From a bacterium (GTDB taxonomy: Bacteria > Patescibacteriota > Minisyncoccia > UBA6257 > WO2-44-18): DNA of 64,000 nucleotides. Below, piece by piece: positions 5,829-53,460 of the stretch. The notes under the pieces are model-generated. The model was not told the origin of the DNA and searched no databases. It saw only the letters and a list, made by a program, of their open reading frames with translations. A program made the translations under genes and the position numbers. Where the stretch lies: assembly GCA_023244815.1 (NCBI GenBank), contig JAHFLQ010000002.1, forward strand, positions 6,994-70,993, written 5' to 3'. Position 1 is the first letter of the stretch; each line of letters starts with the position of its first letter.

Positions 5829-7544
5829 TTAGAGCCTCTTATAATTAACGCCCTTGACCTTTTCTACTTCTGCCTTTTCATACAGTCCCCATGTGTCAAA
5901 CAAAAGGCAGGGCTTATTAGCTACCGAGAGCAGGTTGCGAATCTCCAAATCTTCAAAAGCCGGATTGTTGTTCATCACTATTACCGCGTCGGCGCCTTCA
6001 AATCCCTTTTTTAAATCCGAAACGTGTTTCACCTGCAGCGCCGTGACAGAGGAGCGTTTCACCGCCGGATCATACCCGTAAATATTCTTGGTTGCCTTTT
6101 TTAATTTCTGGACCAGAGGGATGGTGGTAGAGCCGCGCATATCGGAAGTCACCGGACGGCCCTTAAACGCAAATCCTAGGACTAGTAATTTAGGATTTTT
6201 TACAGCCGGATTGTTTTCTTTCAAGAAAGAAATGGTGGAATCGGCAACAAAATTTACCATAGTATCGCTGATGGTCCTGGAGTGCTTTATCAAAGAAGGG
6301 CCATCCTTTCTTTTAGCGCTATGGAGCAAAATAAACGGATCTTTTTCCAGACAGGCGCCGCCGACTCCGGGACTCGGCAACGGCACACTGCTTCTTTCAT
6401 AGCCACGGTTAGCCGCGGCAATCACCCGATGGGTATCAATGCCCAGCTGATTGCAAATCAGAGAAAGTTCGTTGGAAAACGCGAAATGCACGTCCCGGTA
6501 GGTATTGTTGATTAGTTTGACCATTTCCGCCTCTTCCAGCGAATCTACTAGAACAACGGAATGGGTCATGTGATTGAAAATGGAAGCGGCTAAATCAGTA
6601 CTGGACTTGTCAAAGCCACCGATTACCTGAGGAAGGGTGCGCAATTCTCGCAGGGCCTTGCCTTCGATAGTGCGCTCCGGAGCGAAGGCGACAAAAAAAT
6701 CCTTGCCCGCGCGCAATCCCGAGTATTTTTCTAAAGTAGGAATTACGAAACTCCGCGTTGTGCCCACTGGAACCGTGGACCGCAAAATCACCGCATCGCC
6801 GCTTTTCAAAACCCTTCCGATGCGAACAGAAGCGTTTTCCAAATATTCAAGCATTGGCTCCCTTTTTGTGTTGAGAGGCGTACCTACGGCTATGAAATAA
6901 ATATCGCAATTGTTTTCACTGCGAAAATCTTTGACCGGCTCGAAACTCTTACCCAAATTATCCTTCAGTATTTGTTGTATGCCTTCCTCAAAGAAATGTG
7001 CCTTCTTTCTCGCCAAAGATGCCATCACTTCATTGTTAGTATCAAAGCCGCGTACCTTAAAGCCTAGATCCGCTAACGTAAGCGCCAAAGTTAAACCGAC
7101 GTACCCCAAACCCAAAACTCCGATCTGTTTGAAGCGGGTGTCGCTTCTCTGCCAAAGGTCGTAAAAAGAAACTAGATCAAGAACTTTGCGATTTTGATCC
7201 ACTATAATAATTTTATTCAGCCGATTATCGCGCCATTTTTCCTTCCTGTTTTTCTCCGCTACCATAGACAGAATTTCCGTATTGGTTTTCACGCCCTCAA
7301 TAACAAAGGGGGTTTTGTTCATTATTTTCAAAATCGGGCTCTCTAAAGATACGCCGCGAGAAAGCGCGCGGCGGATATCTCCATCCGTAGCTACGCCCAT
7401 CAGCCTCTCGTCTTTACCAACAACCAAAACAATCCCCTGGGGAATCATAGTTATGCCCGGTTTGTTAGTTGTGAGCTTCCGAAGCGCCGCCCTAATGCTT
7501 TCCGTCGGCTTCACAAAAATTTTCGGTAAATGTTTATTGGCCAT
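5829..7544 (-). CDS. CBS-domain pair fused to a UDP-glucose/GDP-mannose 6-dehydrogenase-family nucleotide-sugar dehydrogenase
   Basis: 571 aa. The N-terminal ~130 aa are CBS-like. They are followed by the NAD fold GVLGLGYVGLTLA and the catalytic-cysteine motif GVGGACLEKD of the UDPGDH family. Confidence 0.7.
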   Translation of the reverse strand: MANKHLPKIFVKPTESIRAALRKLTTNKPGITMIPQGIVLVVGKDERLMGVATDGDIRRALSRGVSLESPILKIMNKTPFVIEGVKTNTEILSMVAEKNRKEKWRDNRLNKIIIVDQNRKVLDLVSFYDLWQRSDTRFKQIGVLGLGYVGLTLALTLADLGFKVRGFDTNNEVMASLARKKAHFFEEGIQQILKDNLGKSFEPVKDFRSENNCDIYFIAVGTPLNTKREPMLEYLENASVRIGRVLKSGDAVILRSTVPVGTTRSFVIPTLEKYSGLRAGKDFFVAFAPERTIEGKALRELRTLPQVIGGFDKSSTDLAASIFNHMTHSVVLVDSLEEAEMVKLINNTYRDVHFAFSNELSLICNQLGIDTHRVIAAANRGYERSSVPLPSPGVGGACLEKDPFILLHSAKRKDGPSLIKHSRTISDTMVNFVADSTISFLKENNPAVKNPKLLVLGFAFKGRPVTSDMRGSTTIPLVQKLKKATKNIYGYDPAVKRSSVTALQVKHVSDLKKGFEGADAVIVMNNNPAFEDLEIRNLLSVANKPCLLFDTWGLYEKAEVEKVKGVNYKRL

Positions 7545-25647: not shown

Positions 25648-26616
25648 ATGACCGTGCCCAAAACTATCTTGGTTACCGGCTGCGCCGGATTTATTGGCAG
25701 TAATTTTGTGAAAACTTTCTCGGAACGATTTCCGGAAACGGATGTCATCGGCATCGACAACTTTTCCACGGGACGAAGAGATGCTGTGTTACCAAAAATA
25801 GTTTTTTATGAAGGCTCGGTTCTAGATAGCGGTTTGCTGGAAAAAGTTTTTGCCAAACATCAGCCCAAGTATGTATTTCATTTCGCGGCTATTCCAAGAG
25901 TTTCCTACTCCGTGGAACATCCCCGGGAAACCACGGAGAACAACATCATCGGCACCGTGGCGCTTCTCGAAGCCTCTAAAAATCATAGCGTAAAAAGATT
26001 CGTCTACTCTTCTTCCTCATCTGTTTATGGCGGGGCGGCGAAGACGCCAACTAAAGAATCGGATAACCCGCCAAATCCGAAATCCCCTTACGCTTTTCAA
26101 AAATACGCCGGCGAACAGCTTTGCCAAATGTCCAGCGAGCTTTACGGAATAGATACCGTCTCGCTCCGGTATTTCAACGTCTTCGGTCCCGGACAATACG
26201 GCGACTCGGCTTACGCTAGCGTTATTTCCGGATGGCTTGAAGCGATTTATTTCCCCGATAAAAACAAGAATCCTTTTATTGAAGGCGATGGCGAACAGTC
26301 GCGGGATTTTTGCTACGTAGATAATGTCGTGGAAGCAAATATCTTAGCGATGCGACATCCTAATCCTCTAAAAGGAGATGTATTTAACATCGCCTATGGC
26401 GAGCGCACTAGCGTGAATCAGACTCGCCGGCTGATAGAAGAAATGACGGGCCGAAAACTTAATTTGGAACAGCGCCCGACACGCGCCGGAGATATTAAAC
26501 ATTCCCACGCTGACATCTCTAAGGCGCGGGAAATGCTTGGCTATGATCCAAAAGTAAATTTTAAAGAGGGCCTAAAAAGAACTATTGCCTGGTATCAGCA
26601 ACGTTCTGATAAATAG
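25648..26616 (+). CDS. NAD-dependent epimerase/dehydratase (WbpP/GalE-like)
   Basis: Start MTVPKTILVTGCAGFIGSNF. Motifs SSSSVYG and YAFQKYA (YxxxK). Confidence 0.7.
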   Translation: MTVPKTILVTGCAGFIGSNFVKTFSERFPETDVIGIDNFSTGRRDAVLPKIVFYEGSVLDSGLLEKVFAKHQPKYVFHFAAIPRVSYSVEHPRETTENNIIGTVALLEASKNHSVKRFVYSSSSSVYGGAAKTPTKESDNPPNPKSPYAFQKYAGEQLCQMSSELYGIDTVSLRYFNVFGPGQYGDSAYASVISGWLEAIYFPDKNKNPFIEGDGEQSRDFCYVDNVVEANILAMRHPNPLKGDVFNIAYGERTSVNQTRRLIEEMTGRKLNLEQRPTRAGDIKHSHADISKAREMLGYDPKVNFKEGLKRTIAWYQQRSDK

Positions 26617-27673
26617 CATAGTATGCGGTAGCCGCTTTCGCCCAAGTCATTGAATTGGCGAAGGAGATAGATTCTTTGGCGAAAGACTCTTTCAGTTTAC
26701 GATCGTTTAAAATTAATTTCATCATCTCGGCGGCGGCGGCCGAATCTTTCGGCGGTACCAAAAAACCGTTCTTACCGTCGGCAATCGCATCTTCGGCGCT
26801 GGTATTTTTTGTCGCCACTACCGGCAAGCCACAGGCGGCCGCTTCCAAAAATACCAAACCAAATCCTTCAATGTCCTTTTGGTCATCCTGTGATAACAGT
26901 ATAAATAGTTCGGCATTCTGATAAAGCGCGCTAACGTAATCTGGATGAATATTTTCCAAGAAAATTACACGATTTTGTAATTTGTAATTAGTAATTAGTA
27001 ATTGGAGCGCTTCGCGCTCGGGCCCTCCTCCTACAACCACATATTTCAAATCCGGAAAGTCTTTGGCAATTTTCGCGAAAGCTTCAATGGAATAATTAAA
27101 CCCTTTGCGCTTCTTTAAAGACCCGATGCTTAAAACGTAGGGCTTGAGTTTTTGCGCCTCGGCCTGATAGCCGGCGTGGATTGATTGGAATTTCGCAAAA
27201 TCAACACCGTGATGAATAATTTCTATTTTTAAATCAGGCAAAAACTTTAGAATTTCCTTTTTGGTACTGTTGCTCACCGCCACTACTTTATCGGCTTTCC
27301 TATATGCCCATTTCATAATCGGACGCTTCCACCAGCTATAAAACGGCTGGACCGCCCCCGTGCCGATAGCGGTAATAATAAATGGCTTTTTTAGGCCGAT
27401 ATTGGCAAGCGCCGCAACCACGCCGTAGGGCCAGCCATCAAGCGCATGAATCAGGTCGCATCGGCGCAATACCCTTCTGATTGCCGGAAGGGCAAGCAAT
27501 AACTTTAATTTGTTCGGATACAAAATATTTTCCGAAGTTAATGCCTCAATCTCGACGCCAGAAATAATTTTCTTAACGGCGGTTGAAAAAGAATTATAAA
27601 ACTGCCCGGCGCCTGTATTGCCGCGAGTGTCGTGATTTAAATAACAAATACGCATTATTTTTCTCGATGCCAT
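26582..27673 (-). CDS. GT4-family GT-B glycosyltransferase
   Basis: 363 aa. EGFGLVFLEAAACGLPVVAT (the EX7E region) and YVVVGGGPERE. It carries an in-frame heptamer tract that encodes LQLLITNYKLQN. Confidence 0.7.
   Translation of the reverse strand: MASRKIMRICYLNHDTRGNTGAGQFYNSFSTAVKKIISGVEIEALTSENILYPNKLKLLLALPAIRRVLRRCDLIHALDGWPYGVVAALANIGLKKPFIITAIGTGAVQPFYSWWKRPIMKWAYRKADKVVAVSNSTKKEILKFLPDLKIEIIHHGVDFAKFQSIHAGYQAEAQKLKPYVLSIGSLKKRKGFNYSIEAFAKIAKDFPDLKYVVVGGGPEREALQLLITNYKLQNRVIFLENIHPDYVSALYQNAELFILLSQDDQKDIEGFGLVFLEAAACGLPVVATKNTSAEDAIADGKNGFLVPPKDSAAAAEMMKLILNDRKLKESFAKESISFANSMTWAKAATAYYAIYQNVADTRQ
26977..27004. repeat. Tandem heptanucleotide tract (GTAATTR) x4 inside a GT4 coding sequence
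   Basis: gtaattt gtaatta gtaatta gtaattg. On the coding strand this is (YAATTAC)n and encodes LLITNYKL. Confidence 0.9.
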
Positions 27674-28602
27674 TGAATGGTCCGTCGCAACCCATCAGCA
27701 AATTCAATCTTCGGCGTAAAACCGATAAGCTTCTTCATTTTTGAACCGTCGGCGTGTCGGTACCTGATCTCCCCGGCAATGCGCGGCGCTACATATTTCG
27801 GTTTCATTTTTTTGCCAAACGCTGTTATTACCCGTTCCGCTAGTTGCTCAATGGTGCAGGGTTTTCCCCGGACGATATTGATTACTTCTCCATTTGTTCT
27901 GGGTGAAACCAAAGATCGCAGGACGGCCTCAACATTGTCGTCCACATAAATAAAATCCCGCGTTTGGCGCCCATCGCCAAAAACCGTCGGCGGTTTTCCT
28001 GCCAAAACCTGCTGGATAAACCTGCCGACGACAAATCCTTCGTTGCTTGCGTCCTGGCGAGGCCCGTAAACGTTGAAAAATCTCAGCGCCGTTCCCGCAA
28101 GGCCGAGGTCGGAATATACTTTCACAAATTCTTCCCCAACCGCTTTAACAACACCGTAAGTTGTTTTCGGATTTAATGGGTCGTCCTCACGATTCGGCAT
28201 TTTTATCGGCTCTCCATAAACTTCCGAAGAAGAGGCGAAGGCTACTTTTTTTACGTGGTATTTTTTGGCAAGAGCAAAAAAGCTGGATATCCCATCGAGG
28301 TCGGCCAACACGGTTAGTGGGCGCTCTTGGGTTCTTTTTACACCAACCACCGCGGCGTAGTGGATCGCGTAGTCAGGCCGAAATCTTTTGAAAACACTTT
28401 CAAGATTTTTTCCGTCATTAGCGTCACTCTTCACAAGCTCGAATGATGTGCAAGTCAATGCTTTTTTAAGATTCGCGCGCCGACCGGTGGAAAGATCGTC
28501 AATGGCAAGAACCGAAGCCCCCTCGGAGAGCAGGCGATCAATCAAATGCGATCCCAAAAATCCCGCCCCACCGGTTATCAGCACCTTCTTACCCTTAAGC
28601 AT
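27655..28602 (-). CDS. NAD-dependent epimerase/dehydratase (extended SDR)
   Basis: 315 aa. KKVLITGGAGFLGSHL and YGVVKAV (YxxxK). Confidence 0.7.
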   Translation of the reverse strand: MLKGKKVLITGGAGFLGSHLIDRLLSEGASVLAIDDLSTGRRANLKKALTCTSFELVKSDANDGKNLESVFKRFRPDYAIHYAAVVGVKRTQERPLTVLADLDGISSFFALAKKYHVKKVAFASSSEVYGEPIKMPNREDDPLNPKTTYGVVKAVGEEFVKVYSDLGLAGTALRFFNVYGPRQDASNEGFVVGRFIQQVLAGKPPTVFGDGRQTRDFIYVDDNVEAVLRSLVSPRTNGEVINIVRGKPCTIEQLAERVITAFGKKMKPKYVAPRIAGEIRYRHADGSKMKKLIGFTPKIEFADGLRRTIQWHREK

Positions 28603-29761
28603 TCTCGTAAAGTCTTTTTTGCACGCTCGGCAATGGAACTTCAGCTAAGATTTTGGCAATTTTCTCTCCCGCGTTTCCCTTGCCGTAAATAAATTCTTTT
28701 TCATATGGCCCGTGGTTTAACTGCTGCATAACCGCCTGGCGTATTTCGTTTTTGTTATACCCAGCGTGCAGCACATTCCGACCATGCTCTCGGCCTTTTT
28801 GACGCGTGCCGATATTGACGGTTGGAATTCCAAAATAACCTGACTCCCTGATGCCGCTGGAGGAATTTCCTATCAAGCATTTTGTCTTGCGGAGCAGATT
28901 CGCGAAAATCGCGTGAGGCATATGGCCAAGAATGGTCAATTTCTCTCCCGGATTAGCAAGCTTGAAAAGCCTTATTCCCCTGCTGACATCTTCACTGCCA
29001 GCATCAATATTTGGCCAAAGCATAAAAATCTGCATTCCCAAACCTTTAATTCCCTCAAGGGTCTCTTTCATCTGGCTGATGCCGCTGCCAAACTCCGTGG
29101 TAACCGGATGCTGAATAGCCATAAGATACGGCTTCTCCGGATCAAAGTCCGCTTGAGGATCCTTAAAAAGGGAACGGACGCTTTGCGTCAGCTCTGTTGG
29201 ACTCATCTCCGGCGTAGAAAGAAGAATGTCGGTTGCCGGACAGCCAACGTCAAAAACATAATTGGGATTCTCGCCCATTTTGATAATTCGGTCTTTGGCT
29301 GTGGCAGTTGCCGGAAAATGTATGTGGGAAAGCTTGGTCATCGCGTGGCGCAAGCTCTCGTCAATCGTACCGGTAATTTCTCCTCCCTGAATATGCGCGG
29401 TCGGTATGTTCATTGTTGCCGCCGCTATGGCTGAAGCAAAATTTTCATACCGGTCTACCAGAGCTACTACAATGTCCGGTTTCAGATTAGCGAAACAGGT
29501 AGCAAATTCTAAAACTCCAAGCCCAACAGATTTTGCCATGGTAACCGGCTCACTACCCTGAAGCTCCATCGGAATCCGCGCCGCAATCGGAAATCCGTCC
29601 CGTTCAATGTCCTTCACCGAAAGGCCGTAGTGGTCGAGAAGGTGCGAGCCGGCTACTACTAATTGCAACTGAAGAGCCGGATGCTTCTGGACAGCCGCAA
29701 GAACCGATTTCACTCGGCTGTAATCCGCCCTATTCGCAGTAACAATTGCTATTTTTCTCAT
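28595..29761 (-). CDS. UDP-N-acetylglucosamine 2-epimerase, hydrolysing NeuC type, copy 2
   Basis: 388 aa. HIQGGEITGTIDESLRHAMTKL and GNSSSGIRESGYFGIPTVNIG. Paralog of 8503..9678. Confidence 0.7.
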   Translation of the reverse strand: MRKIAIVTANRADYSRVKSVLAAVQKHPALQLQLVVAGSHLLDHYGLSVKDIERDGFPIAARIPMELQGSEPVTMAKSVGLGVLEFATCFANLKPDIVVALVDRYENFASAIAAATMNIPTAHIQGGEITGTIDESLRHAMTKLSHIHFPATATAKDRIIKMGENPNYVFDVGCPATDILLSTPEMSPTELTQSVRSLFKDPQADFDPEKPYLMAIQHPVTTEFGSGISQMKETLEGIKGLGMQIFMLWPNIDAGSEDVSRGIRLFKLANPGEKLTILGHMPHAIFANLLRKTKCLIGNSSSGIRESGYFGIPTVNIGTRQKGREHGRNVLHAGYNKNEIRQAVMQQLNHGPYEKEFIYGKGNAGEKIAKILAEVPLPSVQKRLYENA

Positions 29762-30861
29762 ATGTCTTCTTTCTGTATCATTTCTCCAGCTGAAATAGAA
29801 CGTTTAACTTTTTTCCCTATAATAGAATGATAATCTTTTGAGCGTATGCCTGTTCCCGGACGTTTGCTGGTGATCATATCCCGAGTTAAAGCCTGCCCGA
29901 CAGAAATATCGCATGCCGCAACTACAGATCGCTTTGCCCAAATCCAAACCGGTTTTTCGTCGTCAGATACTGCACGCTCCTTGCCAAAACCTTCCTCCGC
30001 CGTCTTAATCGTCTGAATTAATTTACTCAGATCTTTCGGGTCAAGCGAGAATTTGGAATCTGCGTCCGGAGCGTTACGGTCAATCGTAAAATGCTTTTCA
30101 ACAAATGCGGCGCCAGCGCCAACCGCCCCCCAAATCATCTCCTCTTGAGATGCCCTTCTTCCAAAAGAATCCTCCACTCCTTCCGGAGAAGTGTGGTCAG
30201 AAAGACCGACGGGAACGCCATAGCGATGCCTCATCTCTCCTATAACTCCCATCTGGAGCTGCGAGGTTTTTTTCGGCGAGTAAACCGAGATACAATGTGC
30301 GAGAGCGAAAGGGGTCCCAATGCTCTTCATTGTATCAACAGTTAGATCAACTTCGTCCCAGTTAGACATGCCGGTGGAAATTATCATCGGCTTTCTCATT
30401 TTCGCCGTCTCTTCTATAAATGGCAGGTCCTCCGTTTCGCCCGACCCGATTTTAAACGAGCTGACGCCCATGTCACGGAGCAGCTCGGCTGCCTTAAGGG
30501 AAAATGGCGTACAAAAATACTCAATGCCGATTTTCCCGCAGTATTCGCGCAACTGCGCGTGTTCATCTGGTTTCAAAAGATTTTTTTGAATAAATCCGTA
30601 AAGAGACCCCCACTTAGAAAACATCGCGCCGGAGGTTTCTTCCATTTTCTCCTTTACCATTTCTTCGTCGGGAAGGTGCAGTTGAAATTTGATGATTTTC
30701 GCTCCCGCTTCTTTAGCGGCATGGGCCATTTCTTTCGCCAAAGCCAAACTGCCCCGATGATTATCTCCTCCTTCCGGAATAACTATGCACGGCTCTCCCT
30801 CACCGATGGCAATCGGTCCAATGGAGATTTTTGAAATTTTCTTAGGTTGTTCGGATGCCAT
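29758..30861 (-). CDS. NeuB-family nonulosonic acid synthase (N-acetylneuraminate / legionaminate / pseudaminate synthase) with a C-terminal SAF domain
   Basis: 367 aa. NeuB motifs KIIKFQ, FKIGSGE, IISTGM and GLSDHT. The C-terminus is antifreeze-like/SAF. Confidence 0.75.
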   Translation of the reverse strand: MASEQPKKISKISIGPIAIGEGEPCIVIPEGGDNHRGSLALAKEMAHAAKEAGAKIIKFQLHLPDEEMVKEKMEETSGAMFSKWGSLYGFIQKNLLKPDEHAQLREYCGKIGIEYFCTPFSLKAAELLRDMGVSSFKIGSGETEDLPFIEETAKMRKPMIISTGMSNWDEVDLTVDTMKSIGTPFALAHCISVYSPKKTSQLQMGVIGEMRHRYGVPVGLSDHTSPEGVEDSFGRRASQEEMIWGAVGAGAAFVEKHFTIDRNAPDADSKFSLDPKDLSKLIQTIKTAEEGFGKERAVSDDEKPVWIWAKRSVVAACDISVGQALTRDMITSKRPGTGIRSKDYHSIIGKKVKRSISAGEMIQKEDI

Positions 30862-38030: not shown

Positions 38031-39380
38031 TTATTGCAATTTTTCTCCCACTATGCCGGCGAGAACATTGCCAAGCCGTTCTCCCGATTTGCCGTCCAGT
38101 TTATAGCAATAACGCTCGCGCACCAGCTGACGCCCCTCTGCGCCCAACTTCGGATCGGCAAGATGGGCCTTAAGCTGGCCGACGAATTCATCCACATTTT
38201 CGGAAAGTTTCACCCCGCCGGTCGCGATCAGATCACGGGCGCAGTCCATATCAAAGAACCAGCGCACGCTCTGGTGATACGGCATTGGCTTTGTGTTAAA
38301 ACCGATAAAAAATGCCGGCTTGTCAAAAACAATGGCATCGATGGCCAGTGTGGAAATATGAGAAACCATGGCATCGCAGTGATATAAAAGGTCAGCCAGG
38401 TGATCGTCACCAGCCATAATGTCAGCTTTTATGAAATCCTCGGCGCTTTCGGGCTCATCAATAGTAAGTGCATTAGGAATAGGCTTAAGCTTCCCAAGAT
38501 TGGTCTTCCCTACTAAAGCAGATCTGACGATAACTTGAATATTTTCAAACGGCGCGAGGGCATGAACAATCATCTCCGCAATCGGATCACTAGCATAGTA
38601 CAGGAGCGGGGGAGAAAGAATGATGGTTTTCTTCTTTGGATCAAGATTCAGTGAATGAAAAAACTCTTCACGGGGTTTCCGCCTATCTTTAACATAACGA
38701 TCATAATGGGGCACGCCTATAACATCAACTTTGCTCGGATAGACATCGCCGTACCGCACAATGTCCTCTTTCATCTTTTCCGCCTGAACCACTACATAAT
38801 CCGGAACAAAGTGATTCAATCCTTTAGTGCTTAAATTATCCCACGAACGGACCATGCCCAGAGTCGCAACTCCTCGCAAATGCGCTTCGCGCATTATCTC
38901 CACGTCTTGATGGCGAAATATATCTGTCGCAAATACCAGATCCGGATTGTATTTATTAAAATATTTTTTATAACGATCTTTTCGCGTTAATAAATAGGCG
39001 GAACGGCGCGCCAGTTGACGAATTAATTTGATCCTGCCCAGCCAGCCTATCAAAGTAAGAATCGCGGCATGAAAATATTTGCCCTGTTCCCTGATAGCGC
39101 TACGCGCTATCTTGGCAGATTCAGTGGGAGATAAAAAGAAGAAGAGTTTTGCTAAAAAAAGCTCGAAAGGCGTTTCCGGAATAGATGGCACACCTTCAAC
39201 AATCACCCGATCGGATCCAAATAGGCCCTGATAGGTTTTCTGCTTTTCTTCCGGAAGCAAGATGACAACCCTGGCCCCGGAAGAATGCGCGAATAGCGTT
39301 TTTAATATATCAGTCCCCAAAAGATTACGCCCGATCAGGCCGTAAAAAGAAGTTATAAAGATAGTTTTTTGCTTGTTCAT
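38031..39380 (-). CDS. TagF-like GT-B transferase, paralog 5
   Basis: 449 aa. MNKQKTIFITSFYGLIGRNLL...GMVRSWDNLSTKG...LADLLYHCDAMVSHISTLAIDAIVFDKPAFFIGFN...LDGKSGERLGNVL. Confidence 0.5.
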   Translation of the reverse strand: MNKQKTIFITSFYGLIGRNLLGTDILKTLFAHSSGARVVILLPEEKQKTYQGLFGSDRVIVEGVPSIPETPFELFLAKLFFFLSPTESAKIARSAIREQGKYFHAAILTLIGWLGRIKLIRQLARRSAYLLTRKDRYKKYFNKYNPDLVFATDIFRHQDVEIMREAHLRGVATLGMVRSWDNLSTKGLNHFVPDYVVVQAEKMKEDIVRYGDVYPSKVDVIGVPHYDRYVKDRRKPREEFFHSLNLDPKKKTIILSPPLLYYASDPIAEMIVHALAPFENIQVIVRSALVGKTNLGKLKPIPNALTIDEPESAEDFIKADIMAGDDHLADLLYHCDAMVSHISTLAIDAIVFDKPAFFIGFNTKPMPYHQSVRWFFDMDCARDLIATGGVKLSENVDEFVGQLKAHLADPKLGAEGRQLVRERYCYKLDGKSGERLGNVLAGIVGEKLQ

Positions 39381-39383
39381 TTA

Positions 39384-40775
39384 TTAATTTCTTTTTATAG
39401 ACGGCAATAAACCGCGAAATTGGGAAAAGAGTTGGCTGGCAAATTGCTTATCAGTTTTATCAAACCTGAATAATCGGTGAAGTTTTATTTTAAATTCGGG
39501 ATGGTGCCTGGTGAGCTGGCTATAAAGAAACCAGGTACGCTCAATATACCGTGCTAGGTATATAATTCCTATTCCGGTTATGCCAATTGTTGGCAAGAAA
39601 ATAACCGATCCCACAATGAGAATAATCAGTTCGTTTAATAAACGCCTAGCCAAAACTTTATATTCCCGCAAAGAAGCAAGTATGGTGTGAAGAATCTTGG
39701 CCACTCCATAAAGAGGCAGTCCGAAAGTCAGGGATATAAAAACCGGAATAGCGGGTGTGTATTTTGGGAAAATAAAAACCACTAAAGGCGGGACAGCAAC
39801 GACGCTTATGATCAGAAACGCGCTACCTATCCAAAACACGTACTTCACCGCTACTTTGGAAATATAGGCCAGCTCATCTAGCTTATCAGCCTTCAGCGCC
39901 AAAATAGGCTTTATTCCGGAGAGAGGCATAAAATCTTGTATAAAAGCTACTAGGCTTAGAGACAAAGAATATAATCCAACTCCTTCGGTATTCACAAAAA
40001 AGTTAATGAGCCACGGAGTTATATCTTGTAAGATTTCTTTCATTCCAAAAATCGCGAAAATTCTTGGGCCGTGATTTTTCACCATGGGAATCATCAGAGG
40101 CTCCGGCGCTGACTGAACATTTCTAAAGGCTTTCTGATACATTTTAATAAAAATAAAAATTGAGGAGGCAAAAGTAGCAATGCCCTCTGCGACAACGTGG
40201 GCAATGAAAACTTCCGTGATCGTGAACCGATGCAGTAGTAAAAACCCTATGATCAGGGCAAGTTTGATAAATTCTCTAAATGCCGAAACGCCTTGCTGGC
40301 TAAAAGAAACAACAGATTGCAAGAATATCGATATTAGAGATTGAAAAGAGCTGGTTAGCAATAAAATGCTGGCCCATTTAATTAAGATAGATATATCCTT
40401 GCCGTAAAAATTGGCTACGATATCGGACCCAAAAAAGACCGCGGCGGCCATAAGCGCGCCGGCTGCTAATTTAAAAAAAATGTTTTCTTTAAAGAGTTTC
40501 TTGGCAAGATCCGGCCTTTGGAGATTAAAATAGCGCCGCATATCCAGAGTGACTAAACCGTCAAAGAAATTAATGCCGATCCCTCGCAAAATAGAAATAA
40601 AAGATAAGATAAGCTGGTAGAGTCCGAAGGAAAACACGCTCAGCGTGCTGATAATAAAATAAGAATTAACTAAGGTTATGCCTGTTTCTAGGGCGCCAAA
40701 CACTCTCTTCGCAGATTCCGCCCTAAAAAAATAGTGCGCTAAAGGCTTTGTTTGGTCTTTCTGGCCTACAATCAT
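39384..40775 (-). CDS. Wzx-like oligosaccharide/polysaccharide flippase (MOP superfamily)
   Basis: 463 aa with about 12-14 TM helices and the typical polysaccharide-biosynthesis-protein topology. It lies within the glycan locus. Confidence 0.55.
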   Translation of the reverse strand: MIVGQKDQTKPLAHYFFRAESAKRVFGALETGITLVNSYFIISTLSVFSFGLYQLILSFISILRGIGINFFDGLVTLDMRRYFNLQRPDLAKKLFKENIFFKLAAGALMAAAVFFGSDIVANFYGKDISILIKWASILLLTSSFQSLISIFLQSVVSFSQQGVSAFREFIKLALIIGFLLLHRFTITEVFIAHVVAEGIATFASSIFIFIKMYQKAFRNVQSAPEPLMIPMVKNHGPRIFAIFGMKEILQDITPWLINFFVNTEGVGLYSLSLSLVAFIQDFMPLSGIKPILALKADKLDELAYISKVAVKYVFWIGSAFLIISVVAVPPLVVFIFPKYTPAIPVFISLTFGLPLYGVAKILHTILASLREYKVLARRLLNELIILIVGSVIFLPTIGITGIGIIYLARYIERTWFLYSQLTRHHPEFKIKLHRLFRFDKTDKQFASQLFSQFRGLLPSIKRN

Positions 40776-41536
40776 TTCGCCGCACGTTTCTGCTTTAATA
40801 ATCCTGCTACTATTTCCAAATCCCGCGGCTCATCAATATCCACCGCTGTTTTGGGATCGGAAATTACCGCGCCAATCGGCCCGGCGAATACGGCCCTCAC
40901 TCCTCGTTTTATATTTTTTGCCCAAATAGCATCCACGGCACCATTATGGAAATAAACTTTCGACAATTTCTGTCTTGGCACGTCATTGCCCCATTTGGCA
41001 AAATCCACTCGAGATACAAATTCCGGCAAAAGCGAGTGCAGTCTGTTTGTTTGTTTATCGACTATCCACATCCGGTAGGGATGCTGGTCCGGTTTTGCTA
41101 CTGTCCTGACCATGCTAAAATTTCCCTTTTTTAAAACCTTAATTACTTTATCAATGTCGCTCGCCGGACGAAGCGGCGAGGTAGCCTTGATAATCACGAC
41201 AATTTCCGGCTGCCAGCCGCGGTGTTTTTCCAACCAAGCCAAAGCGTGTTGCTGATATTCGATTTCGGCAGAAAATTTTTCCGCGGTATTGCTTGGGCGT
41301 AAAAATGGCACGTCAGCGCCTAGGCGCTTCGCCACCTTGGCAATTTTCGGGCTGTCCGTAGAAACAATAAAGGCGTCTAGAAGTTTGGACTTCTGAGCTT
41401 CCTGGATTGAATAGTAGATGAGGGGCTTGCCGCCAACATCTGCTATATTTTTGTACCGGATGCTGGTTGATCCGCCGCGAGCCGGAATAATGCCTAATAT
41501 CTTTACCTTATGCGGACTAGTTTCTCTCATATACAA
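40772..41536 (-). CDS. CMP-sugar cytidylyltransferase (NeuA/KdsB family), paralog 4
   Basis: 254 aa. VKILGIIPARGGSTSIRYKNI. Same CTP-transferase-3 family as the tandem trio at 3669-5824. Confidence 0.7.
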   Translation of the reverse strand: MYMRETSPHKVKILGIIPARGGSTSIRYKNIADVGGKPLIYYSIQEAQKSKLLDAFIVSTDSPKIAKVAKRLGADVPFLRPSNTAEKFSAEIEYQQHALAWLEKHRGWQPEIVVIIKATSPLRPASDIDKVIKVLKKGNFSMVRTVAKPDQHPYRMWIVDKQTNRLHSLLPEFVSRVDFAKWGNDVPRQKLSKVYFHNGAVDAIWAKNIKRGVRAVFAGPIGAVISDPKTAVDIDEPRDLEIVAGLLKQKRAAK

Positions 41537-41562: not shown

Positions 41563-43719
41563 CTAAATTGTCACCGATTTAAGGCAATCCGCGAGACGGA
41601 TCACTAGAGTTGCCAGACTATGCTTTTCGACGATAAGCGCGCGCATTGTTTCTGATATTTTACCAACTTCTACCAATGGTTTTTTAATAAATGCCGTTAT
41701 TTTTCCCGCCAAATCTTTATAGTTATTTTCTTCAAACATTAATTGTCCGACCAAATTTTCCGGGAAAATATCCAAAAACGCCTTATTGCTCACAATTGCC
41801 GGCAAACCACAGGCCATGGCTTCCAGTGTGCTTTTGTCGAAACTTCCGGTATCGGTGAGATTAATAAATAAGTCATACTGATTGTAAATTCCCGGAGTTG
41901 CATAATTAGGCACCGACGAAAGGAATTTTACCCGATCGAATATGCCAAGGTCGGTCGCCAATTTTTTGATTTCTTCATAATACGCAGTCTCTATTGGCTT
42001 GCCCGGCGTTGGCTCGCCTAAAATTGTTAGCGAAGCATTGTCGGTATGATACAGAGCGGCAAAAGCCCGAAGCAAAACATCAACGTGCTTCACTGGCGCG
42101 ATTCTCCCTAAAAACAATATCTTGAATCCTGAATCTTGAATCGTGAATCGTGAATCTCCGAACGGCTTAAACCGCTCTGTATCAATTCCCTGTTGCAACA
42201 CTTCAAGTTTCCTGCTCTGAAATGGATATGCCAAACGTACCGAAGTGACAATTTTATCCGGAAAAATCGCCGCGAGTTTTAGTTTCCATGTACCACGATA
42301 ATGGGCATACCAGAAAACCACGCGCCTGCCCAGTAATCTCCACAGCCAGCCGGCTAAAATTAAATACTCCGGATTCATGTGTACGAAAACCACGTCATAA
42401 TCATTTCTAAGACGCCAAACATATCTATAAAAATTAATCAGGTATTTTAATCTACCGGCATTGGATTCTTTGCCCAGAGAATGAGTTGCCACGTTGGGCG
42501 GTAAATTAGTCCGGCCACGGTAAAGGCAGATCACATGCACTTTGTCGAACTTTCCCGCTAAACCGGCAACCCATTGGTGATAAACACCTAAAACATCGTC
42601 GTCCAGATCCAATTTTTGGGTGATAAACAGTAATTTTTTAAACTTTTCTAGTTTTAAAGAATTCGCGTAAGCCGTTAGATATTCCTGCTTGCTAGGCAAA
42701 TTTTTTATAACTTCCTTTTGCTTGTTAACTAATTCCTGTCGCTCCTTAAAATCTCCGATAAGACTCTGCACGGCAGATGCCACCGCTTGTCGATCGCCAA
42801 CTGGCACTACTTTTCCTATCGCCACACCCACGTCGGTCATCACGACCGGGACGGCGGCTATCGCGGCCTCTACTGCCACGCGGCCATAGCCTTCATAATT
42901 AGAGGTCAGTAAAAATAAATCCGCGTTTTTGTAGTAGCTCGCGAGATCATCATTATACGGCTTAATGACAACATTATTCTGTAGTCGGTAATTGGTAATT
43001 AGTAATTGGAGTTTTCTACGCTCTGGCCCATCCCCAACAATCACTAGCCGTAATTTTGGATTTTCTTTGACTAAATCAGCCATGGCCTCAATTGCTAGGC
43101 CAATGTTTTTCTCTCTGGTAAGCCGGGACGCCATCAGTATTAAAAAATCTTGGCCGTTACCGGCTTTTACGTTTTGAATCCCAACAAGGTCGGTAAAGAT
43201 TGGCAAGGTGGTGATTTTCTCCTCCCCAGTTACTGTTCGTTTAATCAAAGATTTTTTTATACGATCGGAAACTACTCGTACGCCATCCGCTTTTGGCAAA
43301 ATCCTTTTCGCAATCCATATGCGCAACCGGTTTTTGAAAGATTCGCCCGCAAAATAAGGACTTAAAAAATCCGTATGGACCTGAAGCTGAAGAGGCGCCT
43401 TGAACTGACGGGCTAATCGGTAGGCGATCCAGCCGTTTTCAAATGGATCCTGCGCGGTAACTACCCATTGGCCACCAGATTTTAGCAATCGTTCACCTAT
43501 CCCATAAGCAGTCCAAAGTGCCCAGAACTTGAATCTGGAATCGGTAGGGTGCGCGACGGCATTTTCTGATATTAAATCTTCTGTTTTGCCAAAATCCTTC
43601 GCGGTCAGAACAATAATATGCAGCTCGTCGAAATACTGACTGTATTCCCGCATTCTCTTTCTTGCTTCCGAATTTTCTCGCAGAATATTTTCATCTGTAG
43701 AAAGCATTAACACTTTCAT
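41563..43719 (-). CDS. Double-module GT4 glycosyltransferase (two GT-B units in one 718-aa polypeptide)
   Basis: Module 1 has VIVGDGPERRKLQLLITNYRLQ...EGYGRVAVEAAIAAVPVV. Module 2 has ILFLGRIAPVKHVDVLL...FDKSTLEAMACGLPAIVS. It contains two heptamer tracts. Confidence 0.65.
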   Translation of the reverse strand: MKVLMLSTDENILRENSEARKRMREYSQYFDELHIIVLTAKDFGKTEDLISENAVAHPTDSRFKFWALWTAYGIGERLLKSGGQWVVTAQDPFENGWIAYRLARQFKAPLQLQVHTDFLSPYFAGESFKNRLRIWIAKRILPKADGVRVVSDRIKKSLIKRTVTGEEKITTLPIFTDLVGIQNVKAGNGQDFLILMASRLTREKNIGLAIEAMADLVKENPKLRLVIVGDGPERRKLQLLITNYRLQNNVVIKPYNDDLASYYKNADLFLLTSNYEGYGRVAVEAAIAAVPVVMTDVGVAIGKVVPVGDRQAVASAVQSLIGDFKERQELVNKQKEVIKNLPSKQEYLTAYANSLKLEKFKKLLFITQKLDLDDDVLGVYHQWVAGLAGKFDKVHVICLYRGRTNLPPNVATHSLGKESNAGRLKYLINFYRYVWRLRNDYDVVFVHMNPEYLILAGWLWRLLGRRVVFWYAHYRGTWKLKLAAIFPDKIVTSVRLAYPFQSRKLEVLQQGIDTERFKPFGDSRFTIQDSGFKILFLGRIAPVKHVDVLLRAFAALYHTDNASLTILGEPTPGKPIETAYYEEIKKLATDLGIFDRVKFLSSVPNYATPGIYNQYDLFINLTDTGSFDKSTLEAMACGLPAIVSNKAFLDIFPENLVGQLMFEENNYKDLAGKITAFIKKPLVEVGKISETMRALIVEKHSLATLVIRLADCLKSVTI
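42124..42158. repeat. Tandem heptanucleotide tract (GAATCNT) x5 inside a coding sequence
   Basis: gaatcct gaatctt gaatcgt gaatcgt gaatctc. In frame on the minus strand it encodes GDSRFTIQDSGFK. Confidence 0.9.
42981..43008. repeat. Tandem heptanucleotide tract (GTAATTR) x3, plus one degenerate unit, inside a coding sequence
   Basis: gtagtcg gtaattg gtaatta gtaattg. It encodes LQLLITNYRL. Confidence 0.9.
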
Positions 43720-43721
43720 TG

Positions 43722-44360
43722 CTATTTGGACAACTTTTCCAGTACAAAAAAATAATGATAGTGGTTCAACACCGGCCGAACCTCTTTCAATACTGTAAAG
43801 TATTGTTTTAAAACACGGCGAACTTTAGATAAGGAATATTTCCAGGCATCAATCTCCCAATAATGCTGGCCAGAAACTTTAATGCCGCCGAACTTCAGCG
43901 GCATTCTGACAAAGAAATCTAGAAACGACTTCTTAAACAAAGTCCGGACACCGGGGAAGCGCAAGGCCACCTCCCAACCGCTGGATTTATAAGGCAAAGA
44001 TAATACGATGTATCTTGAACTGACGCGCTTAAGTTCGGAGAGCGCTTTGGGCAAATCTTCAAACGGAATGTGTTCCAGAATCTCAAACGCCGTAACCGTC
44101 TCAAATTCGCCGTCGCGAAACGGTAAATTACGCACATCGGCCACCACATCTGGATTCAGATTCTTGTCAAAATCGCAGGTAGTAACCAAACCCCCCAACT
44201 TTTTCAGATAATCGGAAAAAGTGCCATTGCCCTTCCCAAGCTCCAAAACATTTTTAGGATTTAAGCCGGTCGTCAGATCAATCTGATAAAAATAGGAAAT
44301 AAACCGGTTTAGATCGTCATATTTCTTAACAAAATAATGTTTTTTATCTACCTGAGGCAT
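43722..44360 (-). CDS. Class I SAM-dependent methyltransferase
   Basis: 212 aa. VLELGKGNGTFS is motif I and RYIVLSLP is motif II. Confidence 0.55.
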   Translation of the reverse strand: MPQVDKKHYFVKKYDDLNRFISYFYQIDLTTGLNPKNVLELGKGNGTFSDYLKKLGGLVTTCDFDKNLNPDVVADVRNLPFRDGEFETVTAFEILEHIPFEDLPKALSELKRVSSRYIVLSLPYKSSGWEVALRFPGVRTLFKKSFLDFFVRMPLKFGGIKVSGQHYWEIDAWKYSLSKVRRVLKQYFTVLKEVRPVLNHYHYFFVLEKLSK

Positions 44361-46590
44361 GGCTTATTAATTCTACTAAATTATTAACCGTTCGTTCTAT
44401 TGAAAACTTCCCTGCTTTCTTCTTGGCATTTTCAGTAATGGACTCCCGGAATAACGGGTCGGAATCAATTTTTTTGATCGCGGCGATAATTTGTTCCTTA
44501 TTGTTAGGCTGCACAATAATGCCCTCCCTGCCATCCTCTATAAGTTCCGGAATGCTGCCGATCTTTGTGGCAACTATTGGCACACCCGCGTTCATCGCTT
44601 CCACTACTTGAAAAGAAAAGCTCTCAAAAGAAGTGTTCAGCACAAAAACCGACGCTTTCGATAAATATTTTTCCAATTCTTCTCTTGAGACAGCACCGGC
44701 TAATTGAATTTGATCTTGTAATTGGTAATTAGTAATTAGTAATTGGAGATTCGCCCGCTCCGGTCCGTCCCCAACAATCACCAGGCGCCAATCCGGTAAT
44801 TCTTTCATTATTTCTATTAAAACATCGAACCCTTTCCATGGAACCAACCTTCCAGCTGAAAGAATAGTTTTGTCTTTGCTTGCTACTTGCTGCCCACTGC
44901 TTGCTAATAAATTGATACCATTATAAATTACCTGAACCTTTTCCGGATTTTTTACCCAACCGCCAACAAGCTGTTGAAAATACTTGCTTGGCGTAATAAC
45001 AAGATCGGCTTGGCCAACTACAAATTTTTGAATTTTTCTCAAAAATTCCACTTTCAGACCATATTTATTTTTCTGAAAATCATCTATCGTATCTTTCACT
45101 CCAAATCTTTGCGCGGACTGCTCCCAGGCATAGTCACCAGCCACACGGATAAAGAATTTCTTACCTCTTAACCGCGCCGCGATTAAAGCCGGCAAGCCAA
45201 CGCTAGCGGGGTCTTGGGCATAAACAAAATCAAAGCCCTTTATTAATTTCCAGCAATTCCAAAAGTAGTATAGATGGCGAATAATTTTTGGTTTCTTCCT
45301 AAAATCGGTAAACGCCAAATGGCCCACCAAAAATCTACGCTTCGGCAACTCCTCTTCCAGCAGCTTAGTGTAGGTCGCTGGCCCGCCTATGTCCGGCGGA
45401 TAGATTCCGGTGGCAATCAAAATCCGATTTGTGGGCTGTAGGCTGTGCACTGTAAGCCTTTCAAAAAGGCTATTCATTTTTGAGGCAATACCGTCCCAAG
45501 AATAATTTTCCCGAACCAGCCTTTGGCCGTTTTGAGCGATTCTTTCCGCCAACTCCTGATCAGCGAAAAGTAAACTTATTTTTTCCGATAAATCTTTTGG
45601 GTTATCTATTGCACAAAAAAGGCCAGTGGCGCGATCTTTTAAAAAATCCGGTATGCCGCCAACTGGCGTACCAATCACCGGCAAACCGGCCGCCATCGCT
45701 TCCAGAAAAGAACTGCCCAGTCCCTCGGAGCGGGAGGCTCTTACAAAAAAATCGGCTTTTGCTAGATACTCCGGAACTTTTTCTGGATCTAGGTGGCCAA
45801 AAAACTTGACCCGATCCGCTACGCCCAACTCCGCCGCAAGTTTTTTCAACCCTTCCTCTTCGGGACCGCCGCCCAAAATTAGTAATTGGTAATTGGTAAT
45901 TGGTAATTGAGCGGCCGCTCTGATTAAAATATCCACTCCATTTTTATGAACCAATCGCGAAGTGGTGATAATAACTGGGCCGGCAATTTTTGACTTATCA
46001 TTTTTAACTTTTAATTTATCCAGAGCTACTCCATTCGGCACTACCTCGATTGGACAGCGCGCGCCATGGCGCCGAGCAAAATCGGCAAGATAATTACTGA
46101 TAGCTTGGATATGGTCCGCTTTTCTGAAAATCCAACGCCAAAATGGATAAAAAATGCCTACCCGTTTTAAAATATAGATTTCGGAATCTCCCTCCTGAAG
46201 CGTCAGCAAAAATGGAACTTCCGGATGCCGTAGTTTAAATAATAGCGCTGACAGACCGGCATAAGCCGCCATTATGCTCCAAATCGCTTTAAAAGGCTTT
46301 TGTTTATGAATACGCTCTGCCGCGCGCCAGGCCAGGAAAACATAAATAAGCTTTGAAAAAAACCCGCCATAATATTGGCCATCCTTTCTGCCCGCTCCAA
46401 GACGAACGACCGAGATATTGGCATCGTTCTCTATGTCCGGCCAGCGGGCGTCAAATTTTTTAGTTAAAATTATAAATTCAGTCTTGGAAACATGTCTGGC
46501 AATTTCCCGCACAGCGACCTCTGCTCCTCCTACAAAAGGCGCGTAAGCAAGACTAAAAACCGCAATCCCTTCCTTGCGCGAAGAAATCAT
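44344..46590 (-). CDS. Double-module GT4 glycosyltransferase (748 aa)
   Basis: Module 1 has LLILGGGPEEEGLKKLAAELGVADRVKFFGHL...SEGLGSSFLEAMAAGLPVIGT. Module 2 has IVGDGPERANLQLLITNYQLQ...ESFSFQVVEAMNAGVPIVAT. It contains two heptamer tracts. Confidence 0.65.
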   Translation of the reverse strand: MISSRKEGIAVFSLAYAPFVGGAEVAVREIARHVSKTEFIILTKKFDARWPDIENDANISVVRLGAGRKDGQYYGGFFSKLIYVFLAWRAAERIHKQKPFKAIWSIMAAYAGLSALLFKLRHPEVPFLLTLQEGDSEIYILKRVGIFYPFWRWIFRKADHIQAISNYLADFARRHGARCPIEVVPNGVALDKLKVKNDKSKIAGPVIITTSRLVHKNGVDILIRAAAQLPITNYQLLILGGGPEEEGLKKLAAELGVADRVKFFGHLDPEKVPEYLAKADFFVRASRSEGLGSSFLEAMAAGLPVIGTPVGGIPDFLKDRATGLFCAIDNPKDLSEKISLLFADQELAERIAQNGQRLVRENYSWDGIASKMNSLFERLTVHSLQPTNRILIATGIYPPDIGGPATYTKLLEEELPKRRFLVGHLAFTDFRKKPKIIRHLYYFWNCWKLIKGFDFVYAQDPASVGLPALIAARLRGKKFFIRVAGDYAWEQSAQRFGVKDTIDDFQKNKYGLKVEFLRKIQKFVVGQADLVITPSKYFQQLVGGWVKNPEKVQVIYNGINLLASSGQQVASKDKTILSAGRLVPWKGFDVLIEIMKELPDWRLVIVGDGPERANLQLLITNYQLQDQIQLAGAVSREELEKYLSKASVFVLNTSFESFSFQVVEAMNAGVPIVATKIGSIPELIEDGREGIIVQPNNKEQIIAAIKKIDSDPLFRESITENAKKKAGKFSIERTVNNLVELISHASGR
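44718..44745. repeat. Tandem heptanucleotide tract (GTAATTR) x4 inside a coding sequence
   Basis: gtaattg gtaatta gtaatta gtaattg. It encodes LQLLITNYQL. Confidence 0.9.
45882..45909. repeat. Perfect tandem heptanucleotide tract (GTAATTG) x4, with a fifth degenerate unit, inside a coding sequence
   Basis: gtaattg x4 at 45882-45909, preceded by aaaatta. It encodes QLPITNYQLLIL, placed before the GGGPE motif rather than after it. Confidence 0.9.
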
Positions 46591-52827: not shown

Positions 52828-53460
52828 CTATTTAAGCACATAATAACTACCAGGCCCGCCATTGCCAATACGCTCAATTAAGCTCTGACTGCAAAGTTTT
52901 TGGAGGTCATAACGCATAGTCCTTTCGCTAACTTCCGGAAATGCGGCAAGTATCTCTTTAAGTTGAATTTGCCGATTTGCCGATTGCCGAATTTTCTCTA
53001 AAATTGCCGATTGCCTGATTGCCGAGGCAAGGCCATTTCCATTGACATTAGGCCCATTACCATTTTCTTCTGTGATGATCGTTGGACCATTGTCATATTC
53101 TTTCTTTTGAGAAATAACCGCTGGAACCTTAGAGAAAAATCTTCCTAGATCGGGGGCTTCTTCGGTTTCAGAGTCATCTAAGCCAACCAGCTGCCTAATG
53201 GCCGAATTCAAAGACTCTAACTCACCAATAATTATATTTGCGTTTACCGGCTCTACTTCATAAATTGCCCGGCCCAACCCAATCAGACTTTCAAGGCTGG
53301 CAATCGTCTTGAGTGCCAATTCAAAACTTTCAGAAGATGTCTCCTCTAGTAATTGGAAAGCTAATCTTTCCATTCTGTGCCTTAATTCTGGCCGTCGAAT
53401 ATATGGAGAAATTTTTACAAGCGCGTAGCTTATTTCCTGGGATTTTTGATTAATAAACAT
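52828..53460 (-). CDS. Putative transcriptional regulator with a C-terminal winged-helix (DeoR/Fic-accessory-like) DNA-binding domain
   Basis: 210 aa. The C-terminus NRQIQLKEILAAFPEVSERTMRYDLQKLCSQSLIERIGNGGPGSYYVL is HTH-like. It lies directly upstream of the giant surface-protein gene on the same strand. Confidence 0.4.
   Translation of the reverse strand: MFINQKSQEISYALVKISPYIRRPELRHRMERLAFQLLEETSSESFELALKTIASLESLIGLGRAIYEVEPVNANIIIGELESLNSAIRQLVGLDDSETEEAPDLGRFFSKVPAVISQKKEYDNGPTIITEENGNGPNVNGNGLASAIRQSAILEKIRQSANRQIQLKEILAAFPEVSERTMRYDLQKLCSQSLIERIGNGGPGSYYVLK
52967..53027. repeat. Imperfect 7-8-nt tandem repeats (ATTTGCCG / ATTGCCG) inside the regulator coding sequence
   Basis: atttgccg atttgccg attgccg ...aattgccg attgcct gattgccg. 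It encodes SAIRQSAI...IRQSANRQI. Confidence 0.7.

Follow-up and report, generated by a model that had tools for sequence, protein, structure and literature searches.

We analysed a 64,000-nt stretch of a Patescibacteriota genome (contig JAHFLQ010000002.1 of assembly GCA_023244815.1; hereafter the window) in which three glycosyltransferase genes of the GT4 family carry short tandem arrays of a 7-nt unit inside their coding sequences. Heptanucleotide arrays of this kind are common in, and nearly confined to, the GT4 genes of the Patescibacteria loci that we surveyed. The three open reading frames (ORFs A–C, Table 1) are long and intact, with one GT4 module in ORF A and two each in ORFs B and C. 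They match the Pfam families PF00534, PF13439 and PF13692 with E-values of 1e-15 to 1e-88, and the pairing of a Glyco_transf_4 N-domain with a Glycos_transf_1 C-domain, giving two Rossmann domains, identifies them as GT4 enzymes of the GT-B fold. The best PDB matches were the BshA structures 5d00 and 2jjm, and an AlphaFold model of ORF C (mean predicted local distance difference test score, pLDDT, of 89.5) showed alternating strands and helices in both modules. Among the homologues of ORF C, those with a named source are labelled as metagenome-assembled genomes of Patescibacteria or the Parcubacteria group, and the closest non-identical relative is 66% identical. Tract numbers and coordinates refer to the window, and all tracts lie in minus-strand genes, so that the minus strand is their sense strand.

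Table 1 Genes and repeat features, in window coordinates unless a related locus is named
Feature	Position	Strand	Sequence and context
ORF A	26582..27673	-	363 aa; single-module GT4 glycosyltransferase; tract 1
ORF B	41563..43719	-	718 aa; double GT4 glycosyltransferase; tract 2 and GATTCAN tract
ORF C	44344..46590	-	748 aa; double GT4 glycosyltransferase; tracts 3 and 4, decayed array, variable linker patch
Tract 1	26977..27004	-	CAATTAC TAATTAC TAATTAC AAATTAC; ORF A; QLLITNYKLQ, helix after GGGPE (site B)
Tract 2	42981..43008	-	CAATTAC TAATTAC CAATTAC CGACTAC; ORF B module 1; QLLITNYRLQ after GDGPE (site B)
Tract 3	44718..44745	-	CAATTAC TAATTAC TAATTAC CAATTAC; ORF C module 2; QLLITNYQLQ, model helix 612-621 and loop
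Tract 4	45877..45909	-	(CAATTAC)x4 + TAATT; ORF C module 1; QLPITNYQLLIL, loop 228-234 and strand 235-240 before GGGPE (site A)
Fifth period-7 tract	42119..42157	-	(GATTCAN)x5.4; ORF B module 2; DSRFTIQDSGFKI, inter-domain linker before ILFLGRIAPVKH
Decayed heptamer array	45985..46020	-	AAATTAA AAGTTAA AAATGAT AAGTCAA AAATTG; ORF C; KLKVKNDKSKI, module 1 inter-domain linker, low-pLDDT block
Palindromes in heptamer arrays of relatives	L006 2118-2138, 2304-2324; L045 3563-3586, 4566-4589; L002 ~5903-5923; L208 ~2070-2150		

The original prediction, made from the letters of the window alone, had described four plus-strand (GTAATTR)n tracts (tracts 1–3, and 45882-45909 within tract 4), and both their positions and their peptides were borne out. 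A pattern search for three GTAATTR units with up to two mismatches gave nine overlapping matches in the window, all within these four tracts, against 0.00 in 100 dinucleotide-preserving shuffles, and Tandem Repeats Finder (TRF) called arrays at 26977-27003 (3.9 copies), 42987-43009 (3.3), 44718-44744 (3.9) and 45877-45909 (4.7). On the sense strand the unit is YAATTAC, which is read through all three frames to give the peptides GGGPEREALQLLITNYKLQNRV, GDGPERRKLQLLITNYRLQNNV, GDGPERANLQLLITNYQLQDQI and AAQLPITNYQLLILGGGPE; tracts 1–3 thus encode LQLLITNY(K/R/Q)LQ right after G(G/D)GPExxx, and tract 4 encodes its peptide right before GGGPE. When the window was scanned at periods of 4–15, multi-copy tandem repeats were confined to ORFs A–C and to two periods, 7 and its double, 14: four to five period-7 tracts were found against none in shuffles, and none at periods 4–6 and 8–12. 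The scan added the GATTCAN tract and the decayed array, which overturns the earlier statement that nothing comparable exists elsewhere in the window, and it leaves five tracts within ORFs whose unit is not a multiple of three, where chance predicts none. Shuffles of both the window and the related loci exclude an artefact of chance or composition, and an assembly artefact is excluded by the identity of the window sequence in independent ENA and Logan assemblies (L082 and L083), which equal the window exactly over the stretches that they cover. The tracts had no match in Rfam at the gathering score and no tRNA was found at them.

Structural comparison showed where the repeats fall in the folded enzymes. 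In the alignment to BshA, LQLLITNYKLQNRV stands opposite ELIRKYGLEDQV and LQLVKNLHIEDRV at equal length, and tracts 1–3 correspond to the helix lying between strands two and three of the C-terminal Rossmann domain. In the AlphaFold model of ORF C, tract 3 falls in helix 612-621 and the loop that follows, and tract 4 in a loop and a strand, both segments with high confidence, so that a single nucleotide repeat would encode different structures. The tracts had been assigned to the inter-domain region, and the 5d00 alignment and the model correct this assignment, since three form a helix of the C-domain and the fourth a loop and strand at residues 228-240. The accompanying observation that the nucleotide repeat is conserved while its position in the protein varies was confirmed, with three copies in the helix after GxGPE and one in the loop and strand before GGGPE.

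To place these tracts in a wider context we used 80 related loci from one-genome-per-species Patescibacteria assemblies, which together with the window amount to 81 sequences and 702 kb. The 80 loci contained 56 period-7 tracts, compared with one in shuffles and 0–3 for every other period. Exact runs of at least three copies numbered 33 at period 7 where none were expected, and no other period had a comparable excess. TRF detected 109 period-7 arrays in the 702 kb, 64 of them at 4.0–5.0 copies; no array fell between 5.5 and 7 copies, and the two outliers at 7.4–7.6 equal the main peak plus three units. Array length was uniform at approximately 30–34 nt across different structural sites. Among the 101 arrays of at least three copies, 92 lay in GT4-like ORFs (351 kb) and seven in other ORFs (339 kb), three of these seven being in apparently truncated GT4 genes at the ends of loci; 38 of the 81 sequences had at least one such array in a GT4 gene. 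The commonest site was after GxGP(E/D), the others being the segment ahead of the LxIxGxGP strand, the linkers between domains and between modules, and a few N-domain loops. Arrays occupied permissive segments (linkers, the helix that follows GxGPE, and the loop ahead of the LxIxGxGP strand), and none was found at catalytic motifs. The units themselves were diverse, with 61 different ones among the 92 arrays and seven in locus L001 alone, and the peptides that follow GDGPE in ORF C orthologues often look like a different heptamer translated through all three frames (LKFKIENLKL, LESRILNLEL, LKSQISNLKL, LELRIKNYEL and others).

We then asked at which level the repeat is maintained, rewriting the array peptides with synonymous codons at the genome's own usage and comparing the identity at lag 7. 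This identity was 0.84 as observed and 0.49 after recoding, with 84 of the 92 arrays at p<0.01, and for each of the five window tracts all of 2000 recodings fell short of the observed value. Furthermore, locus L045 carries a 55-nt composite (array, 24-nt palindrome, array) at two sites, where it is read in two different frames. The loss of periodicity on synonymous recoding and the reading of one composite in two frames indicate that the feature is nucleotide-level and not peptide-level. An explanation by selection on the peptide would treat LQLLITNYxLQ as a conserved helix that merely happens to be encoded by a nucleotide repeat. In its favour, the hydrophobic residues of this peptide follow the canonical GT4 helix pattern (L..LI..Y.L; compare BshA ELIRKYGLEDQV), and the AlphaFold model places the peptide in a confident helix. 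The explanation must nevertheless contend with the recoding result, with a repeat that encodes a helix in one place and a loop with a strand elsewhere, with orthologues whose peptides differ and are each again heptamer-encoded, and with the two frames of the L045 composite, and we regard it as effectively refuted. Conservation of the LITNY peptide apart from the repeat, which the original prediction had named, together with invariant tract length, as evidence that would count against it, is excluded by the same recoding and by the orthologues with other heptamers at the same site.

Taken as a whole, we tentatively interpret the tracts as coding heptanucleotide microsatellites that were born of slippage and act as slow, unproven frameshift switches, a reading in which our confidence falls a little short of even. 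Strand slippage or out-of-register repair would create the arrays and keep them homogeneous, and selection would purge each length that breaks the frame or the fold. Arrays would build up in GT4 genes because a single glycan-decorating transferase may be lost for a time without cell death. If one unit slipped, the protein would be truncated, usually in or just past the tract, and the transferase module could thereby be turned off and then on again; when we simulated the gain or loss of one unit in the window tracts, the protein was truncated and an in-tract TAA arose at once in seven of ten cases. The idea of ON/OFF switching thus retains its footing in the gene class, a surface-glycan cluster, and in the truncating effect of a slip, and lacks the copy-number or ON/OFF variation in assemblies that it had implied. 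The premise that a 7-nt unit cannot change copy number without a frameshift needs amending, as steps of three units keep the frame: L001 and L012 differ by exactly 21 nt, or three units, inside an orthologous CCCTAWA array.

Over longer evolutionary distances the arrays and their surroundings do change. The class of unit after GDGPE follows the protein phylogeny only partly, with the nearest neighbour having the same class in 23 of 39 cases, and units can differ in class at up to 83% protein identity and coincide at 41–44%. Truncated alleles were also found in orthologues of ORF C. L209 has lost, relative to L208, 74 nt that lay between AAATCCGAAATC direct repeats in the module 1 inter-domain linker; this deletion removed two palindromes and frameshifted the gene, giving a natural truncated allele (P0158). 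In L211, compared with L212, a 20-nt deletion just 5′ of an array removed the conserved VVPNGVD codons, so that the gene is broken into two ORFs, one of 182 aa and one of 559 aa. These two frameshifted alleles indicate that orthologous transferases can be lost in nature. The two GT4 modules were separate ORFs in 23 of the 80 loci (L001–L080), with the break always in the inter-module linker at approximately residue 373-378 of ORF C; frameshifting at an array was considered as the cause and rejected, since all 23 splits lie in that linker.

Several observations weigh against the interpretation of the tracts as slippage-born switches. No array was out of frame among the 92 in GT4 genes of the 81 sequences, and no one-unit slip was seen. 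In L081, a second strain with 99.8% identity to the window over 16 kb, the tracts at 42119, 42981, 44718 and 45882 were identical to those of the window (tract 1 lies outside L081, L082 and L083). Nineteen orthologue clusters at 90% identity showed no indels at arrays in full-length members, and some exact orthologue sequences recurred on 18–35 contigs. The 74-nt and 20-nt events in L209 and L211 are not unit slips. Over 36 nt, tract 3 matches the L001 orthologue exactly, although the two genes share 61% identity overall and only 49% at third codon positions of conserved residues; no other 12-codon stretch of the gene is as well conserved, a pattern that looks like conservation of sequence and not like turnover. 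Arrays at site B add no length compared with ordinary GT4 enzymes, which means that more than simple expansion must be involved. The sense strand of the arrays is unusual in composition, with 44% A and 10% G compared with 28% and 24% in whole genes, and this bias is not accounted for by avoidance of stop codons in three frames, which predicts 23.5% A and 25% G and was discarded as a cause. Finally, the reasons for a period of seven and for the restriction to GT4 genes are ones that we infer.

Known contingency loci are often OFF in reference genomes, and surface-glycan transferases are phase-variable in Haemophilus, Neisseria and Campylobacter. We considered classical rapid phase variation, in which slipped-strand mispairing at high frequency would maintain ON and OFF cells for each transferase in every population. 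The unit length that is no multiple of three, the clean stop produced by a slip, the presence of several tracts per cluster, and the occurrence of surface-glycan transferases, a gene class switched in those pathogens, in a small-genome and probably host-attached lineage would all suit such a mechanism. Against this, the absence of OFF alleles among the 92 arrays of the reference genomes and of length variants among conspecific assemblies, the 4–5 copies compared with 13–38 in the H. influenzae hmw tracts and 14 in an intragenic H. influenzae tract, and the position of the arrays in mid-gene at approximately ten different sites, not near the 5′ end, make rapid phase variation improbable. Copy number did not differ among close strains in this small assembly-level sample, and no strain-level copy-number variant matched a flank-anchored pattern with a variable gap in JGI metagenomes. 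As there were no OFF arrays, no length variants in assemblies and few copies compared with H. influenzae, rapid phase variation at the tracts is not supported, and the data point to slow, strain-level glycan variation over rapid variation of the pathogen type.

Comparison with simple sequence repeat (SSR) contingency loci of Haemophilus, Neisseria and Campylobacter clarifies both the resemblance and its limits. In both cases non-triplet tandem repeats lie in the coding sequence of surface-glycan transferases of small-genome bacteria, and a change of one unit truncates the enzyme. However, units in contingency loci are 1 or 4 nt long, whereas the unit here is always 7 nt at 4–5 copies, and the arrays here are in mid-gene at about ten recurrent structural sites, often several per gene, all in frame, with genome-specific units and no length polymorphism among conspecific assemblies. 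The repeats of hmw1A and hmw2A in H. influenzae also have 7-nt units and affect the expression of surface-related genes, and one strain carries (AATTTTG)14 within a gene, together with a frameshift. Those hmw tracts are mostly in promoters and have documented strain variation, while none was seen at the 4–5 copies here; phase-variable heptanucleotide tracts of H. influenzae have 13–38 copies, and repeat-mediated switching of glycosyltransferases is classical in pathogens (PMC2651432).

A second point of comparison is the class of long SSRs with heptanucleotide units, which includes the short tandemly repeated repetitive (STRR) sequences of cyanobacteria and the TAACTGA repeats of Beggiatoaceae. 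According to Mrazek 2007, as cited in PMC4679880, heptanucleotides are the most abundant class of 5–11-nt long simple repeats in prokaryotes and polymerase slippage is their proposed cause. The arrays described here share with this class the tandem 7-nt unit, an occurrence beyond chance and abundance within a lineage, and the TAACTGA sets, at 2–6 copies, have similar copy numbers (PMC4679880). Heptanucleotide long SSRs are, however, mainly intergenic, with TAACTGA just upstream of start codons, and usually have one dominant unit per genome, whereas the present arrays are not predominantly intergenic (99 of 101 lie inside ORFs) and are in frame, on the sense strand only, in one enzyme family and with dozens of units. 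The preference for 7-nt units among bacterial repeats, with slippage proposed, and the switching of transferases in pathogens are thus already known, while searches of the literature turned up no account of low-copy, in-frame heptamer arrays specific to the GT4 genes of Patescibacteria. The AATTACY unit of the window is itself also arrayed in many unrelated metagenome contigs: in a metagenome scan for (AATTACY)3 most matches stood in unrelated surroundings and formed longer arrays, which shows that outside Patescibacteria the unit is not GT4-specific. Among the metagenome contigs that match AATTACYAATTACYAATTAC (L088–L167), many unrelated ones carry arrays of the AATTACY unit with up to approximately 13 copies, which lie for the most part in short ORFs or outside any ORF; our guess is that these are STRR-like repeats of other phyla.

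The main rival to slippage-born switches is a purely neutral or selfish origin, in which heptamer arrays and nested palindromes spread by copy-paste or illegitimate recombination, are kept where the encoded peptide is harmless, and switch nothing. Relatives of the window do contain GC-rich palindromes of 21–24 nt nested in arrays, in frame and duplicated within a genome (e.g. CCCGCCTGCCGGCGAGGCAGG; Table 1), with composites of array and palindrome that are identical at two sites within L006 and within L045, in the latter in different frames. Presence/absence indels of 21 nt (7 aa) that match the palindromes were seen among members of 90% protein clusters. Small elements inserted in frame in protein genes are known as Rickettsia palindromic elements and cyanobacterial small dispersed repeats, which, like the arrays here, act at the nucleotide level, keep the frame and occupy permissive surface segments. 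The palindromes in L006, L045, L002 and L208 behave like Rickettsia palindromic elements, whereas the tracts of the window are tandem and not palindromic, add no length at site B and lie in one gene family. A neutral or selfish origin would also account for arrays restricted to permissive loops, linkers and one surface helix, always in frame, for their stability within species, and for their size of approximately 30–34 nt at all structural sites. Its weak point is that arrays are almost missing from non-GT4 genes: these account for half of the DNA surveyed but for only about 7% of the arrays, although a general selfish or mutational process should colonise their permissive loops too. Moreover, the large majority of arrays have no palindrome, and no transposition machinery or target duplication was identified. 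On balance we consider this origin unlikely, if to be taken seriously.

The original prediction had offered recombination hotspots as an alternative to switching, and the evidence for these is indirect. As anchors for recombination or gene conversion, shared units would let paralogous GT4 genes swap segments or delete the DNA between them. In agreement with this, the three window genes between them carry four tracts of one unit, in direct orientation and at a shared codon phase, array pairs share a unit (with at most one mismatch) in 17.8% of cases within a locus and 7.8% between loci, identical composites occur at two sites in one genome, and the L209 deletion lies between heptamer direct repeats. 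However, the flanks of the window tracts are dissimilar, the units mostly differ among arrays of one genome, and 28 nt is short for homologous recombination. Chimeric GT4 alleles with a breakpoint at a tract were looked for and none was found: a recombination block in L084/L085 spans an array and does not end there, and the seemingly chimeric tail after the array in P0157 has its junction approximately 140 nt from the end of a contig of 3.5x coverage and so carries no weight. The only substantial difference between the window and the second strain, L081, is a 75-nt patch of the ORF C inter-module linker (45418-45492, minus strand; aa 367-390), which is exchanged at equal length for unrelated sequence with 32 differences; outside the patch this strain is 99.98% identical, with two single-nucleotide polymorphisms over 16 kb. 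Both alleles of the patch are weakly period-7, and no donor was found for it. Recombination anchors are possible but less supported, and we consider them very improbable. A terminator-like hairpin lies on the antisense strand at 45455-45471, inside the replaced patch. The patch does not resemble the target of a diversity-generating retroelement (DGR), since it differs at all four bases and no template was found (no search aimed at reverse transcriptase was made).

Regulator-binding sites are likewise possible but less supported. Here the arrays would be cis-acting sites in mRNA or DNA, unstructured A-rich and G-poor segments of approximately 32 nt bound by S1-, Csp- or Hfq-like proteins, or by a binder of heptad DNA, that co-regulate the transferases. 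The compositional bias towards A (44%) and away from G (10%) beyond coding constraints, the narrow range of array length, the confinement to one functional gene class, and the 36 nt of tract 3 as the most conserved stretch of its gene compared with L001 would be in keeping with such sites, as would the lack of structure in the tracts as single strands (z-scores of -1.3 to +0.9), by which a hairpin or cruciform was also rejected. An analogous proposal exists for the intergenic TAACTGA heptamer repeats (PMC4679880). Yet 61 different units, with several in a single genome (seven in L001), argue against a sequence-specific binder, recognition by composition needs no exact periodicity, and neither internal promoters nor terminators were found at the tracts, where counts of such signals equalled those in shuffles. 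We rate this explanation as remote.

A bolder proposal is that Patescibacteria possess an unrecognised DNA-level system that acts on GT4 genes and actively makes or rewrites heptamer arrays, nested 21–24-nt palindromes and linker cassettes that are rapidly replaced. We think this rather doubtful. If true, it would provide programmable ON/OFF or allelic variation of surface glycans in regulator-poor, host-attached cells, and it would be mechanistically distinct from both classical contingency loci and DGRs.

Patescibacteria make up a large share of bacterial diversity, are host-attached and have few regulators. A repeat class that is specific to GT4 genes, acts at the nucleotide level and keeps the frame is a concrete, testable candidate for glycan variation in this group. 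It also offers a natural case in which to ask why 7-nt units are favoured in bacterial repeats and how frame-breaking repeats persist in genes. In addition, the arrays are assembly-independent markers of GT4 hot spots, and they account for peculiar peptides of low complexity, such as ITNYQL, KFKIENL and KSQISNL, in protein annotations of the candidate phyla radiation (CPR).

The genes around ORFs A–C include those for NeuB, a UDP-GlcNAc 2-epimerase, an NAD-dependent epimerase, a cytidylyltransferase (CTP_transf_3) and a glycerophosphotransferase (Glyphos_transf), located at 27655-30861 and 38031-41536, and for methyltransferases. By predicted gene content, ORFs A–C belong to a surface-glycan cluster, and the cluster suggests a surface polymer that may contain nonulosonic acid or be teichoic-acid-like. 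The association with surface or host-interaction genes that is typical of contingency loci is thus present, in the GT4 genes together with NeuB, the 2-epimerase, CTP_transf_3 and Glyphos_transf. A 1275-aa ORF with no Pfam match (48630-52457, minus strand) adjoins the cluster, and its position is kept in relatives, with genes of 1272 and 1275 aa in L210, L081 and L082. Also on the minus strand, an ORF with a weak HTH_DeoR match (52828..53373) contains, at 52967-53025, two blocks of CGGCAAT/CGGCAAAT repeats with units of 7–8 nt and approximately three copies each, which encode AIRQSAI...IRQSANRQIQ and are the only short-unit tandem array of the window in a non-GT4 gene.

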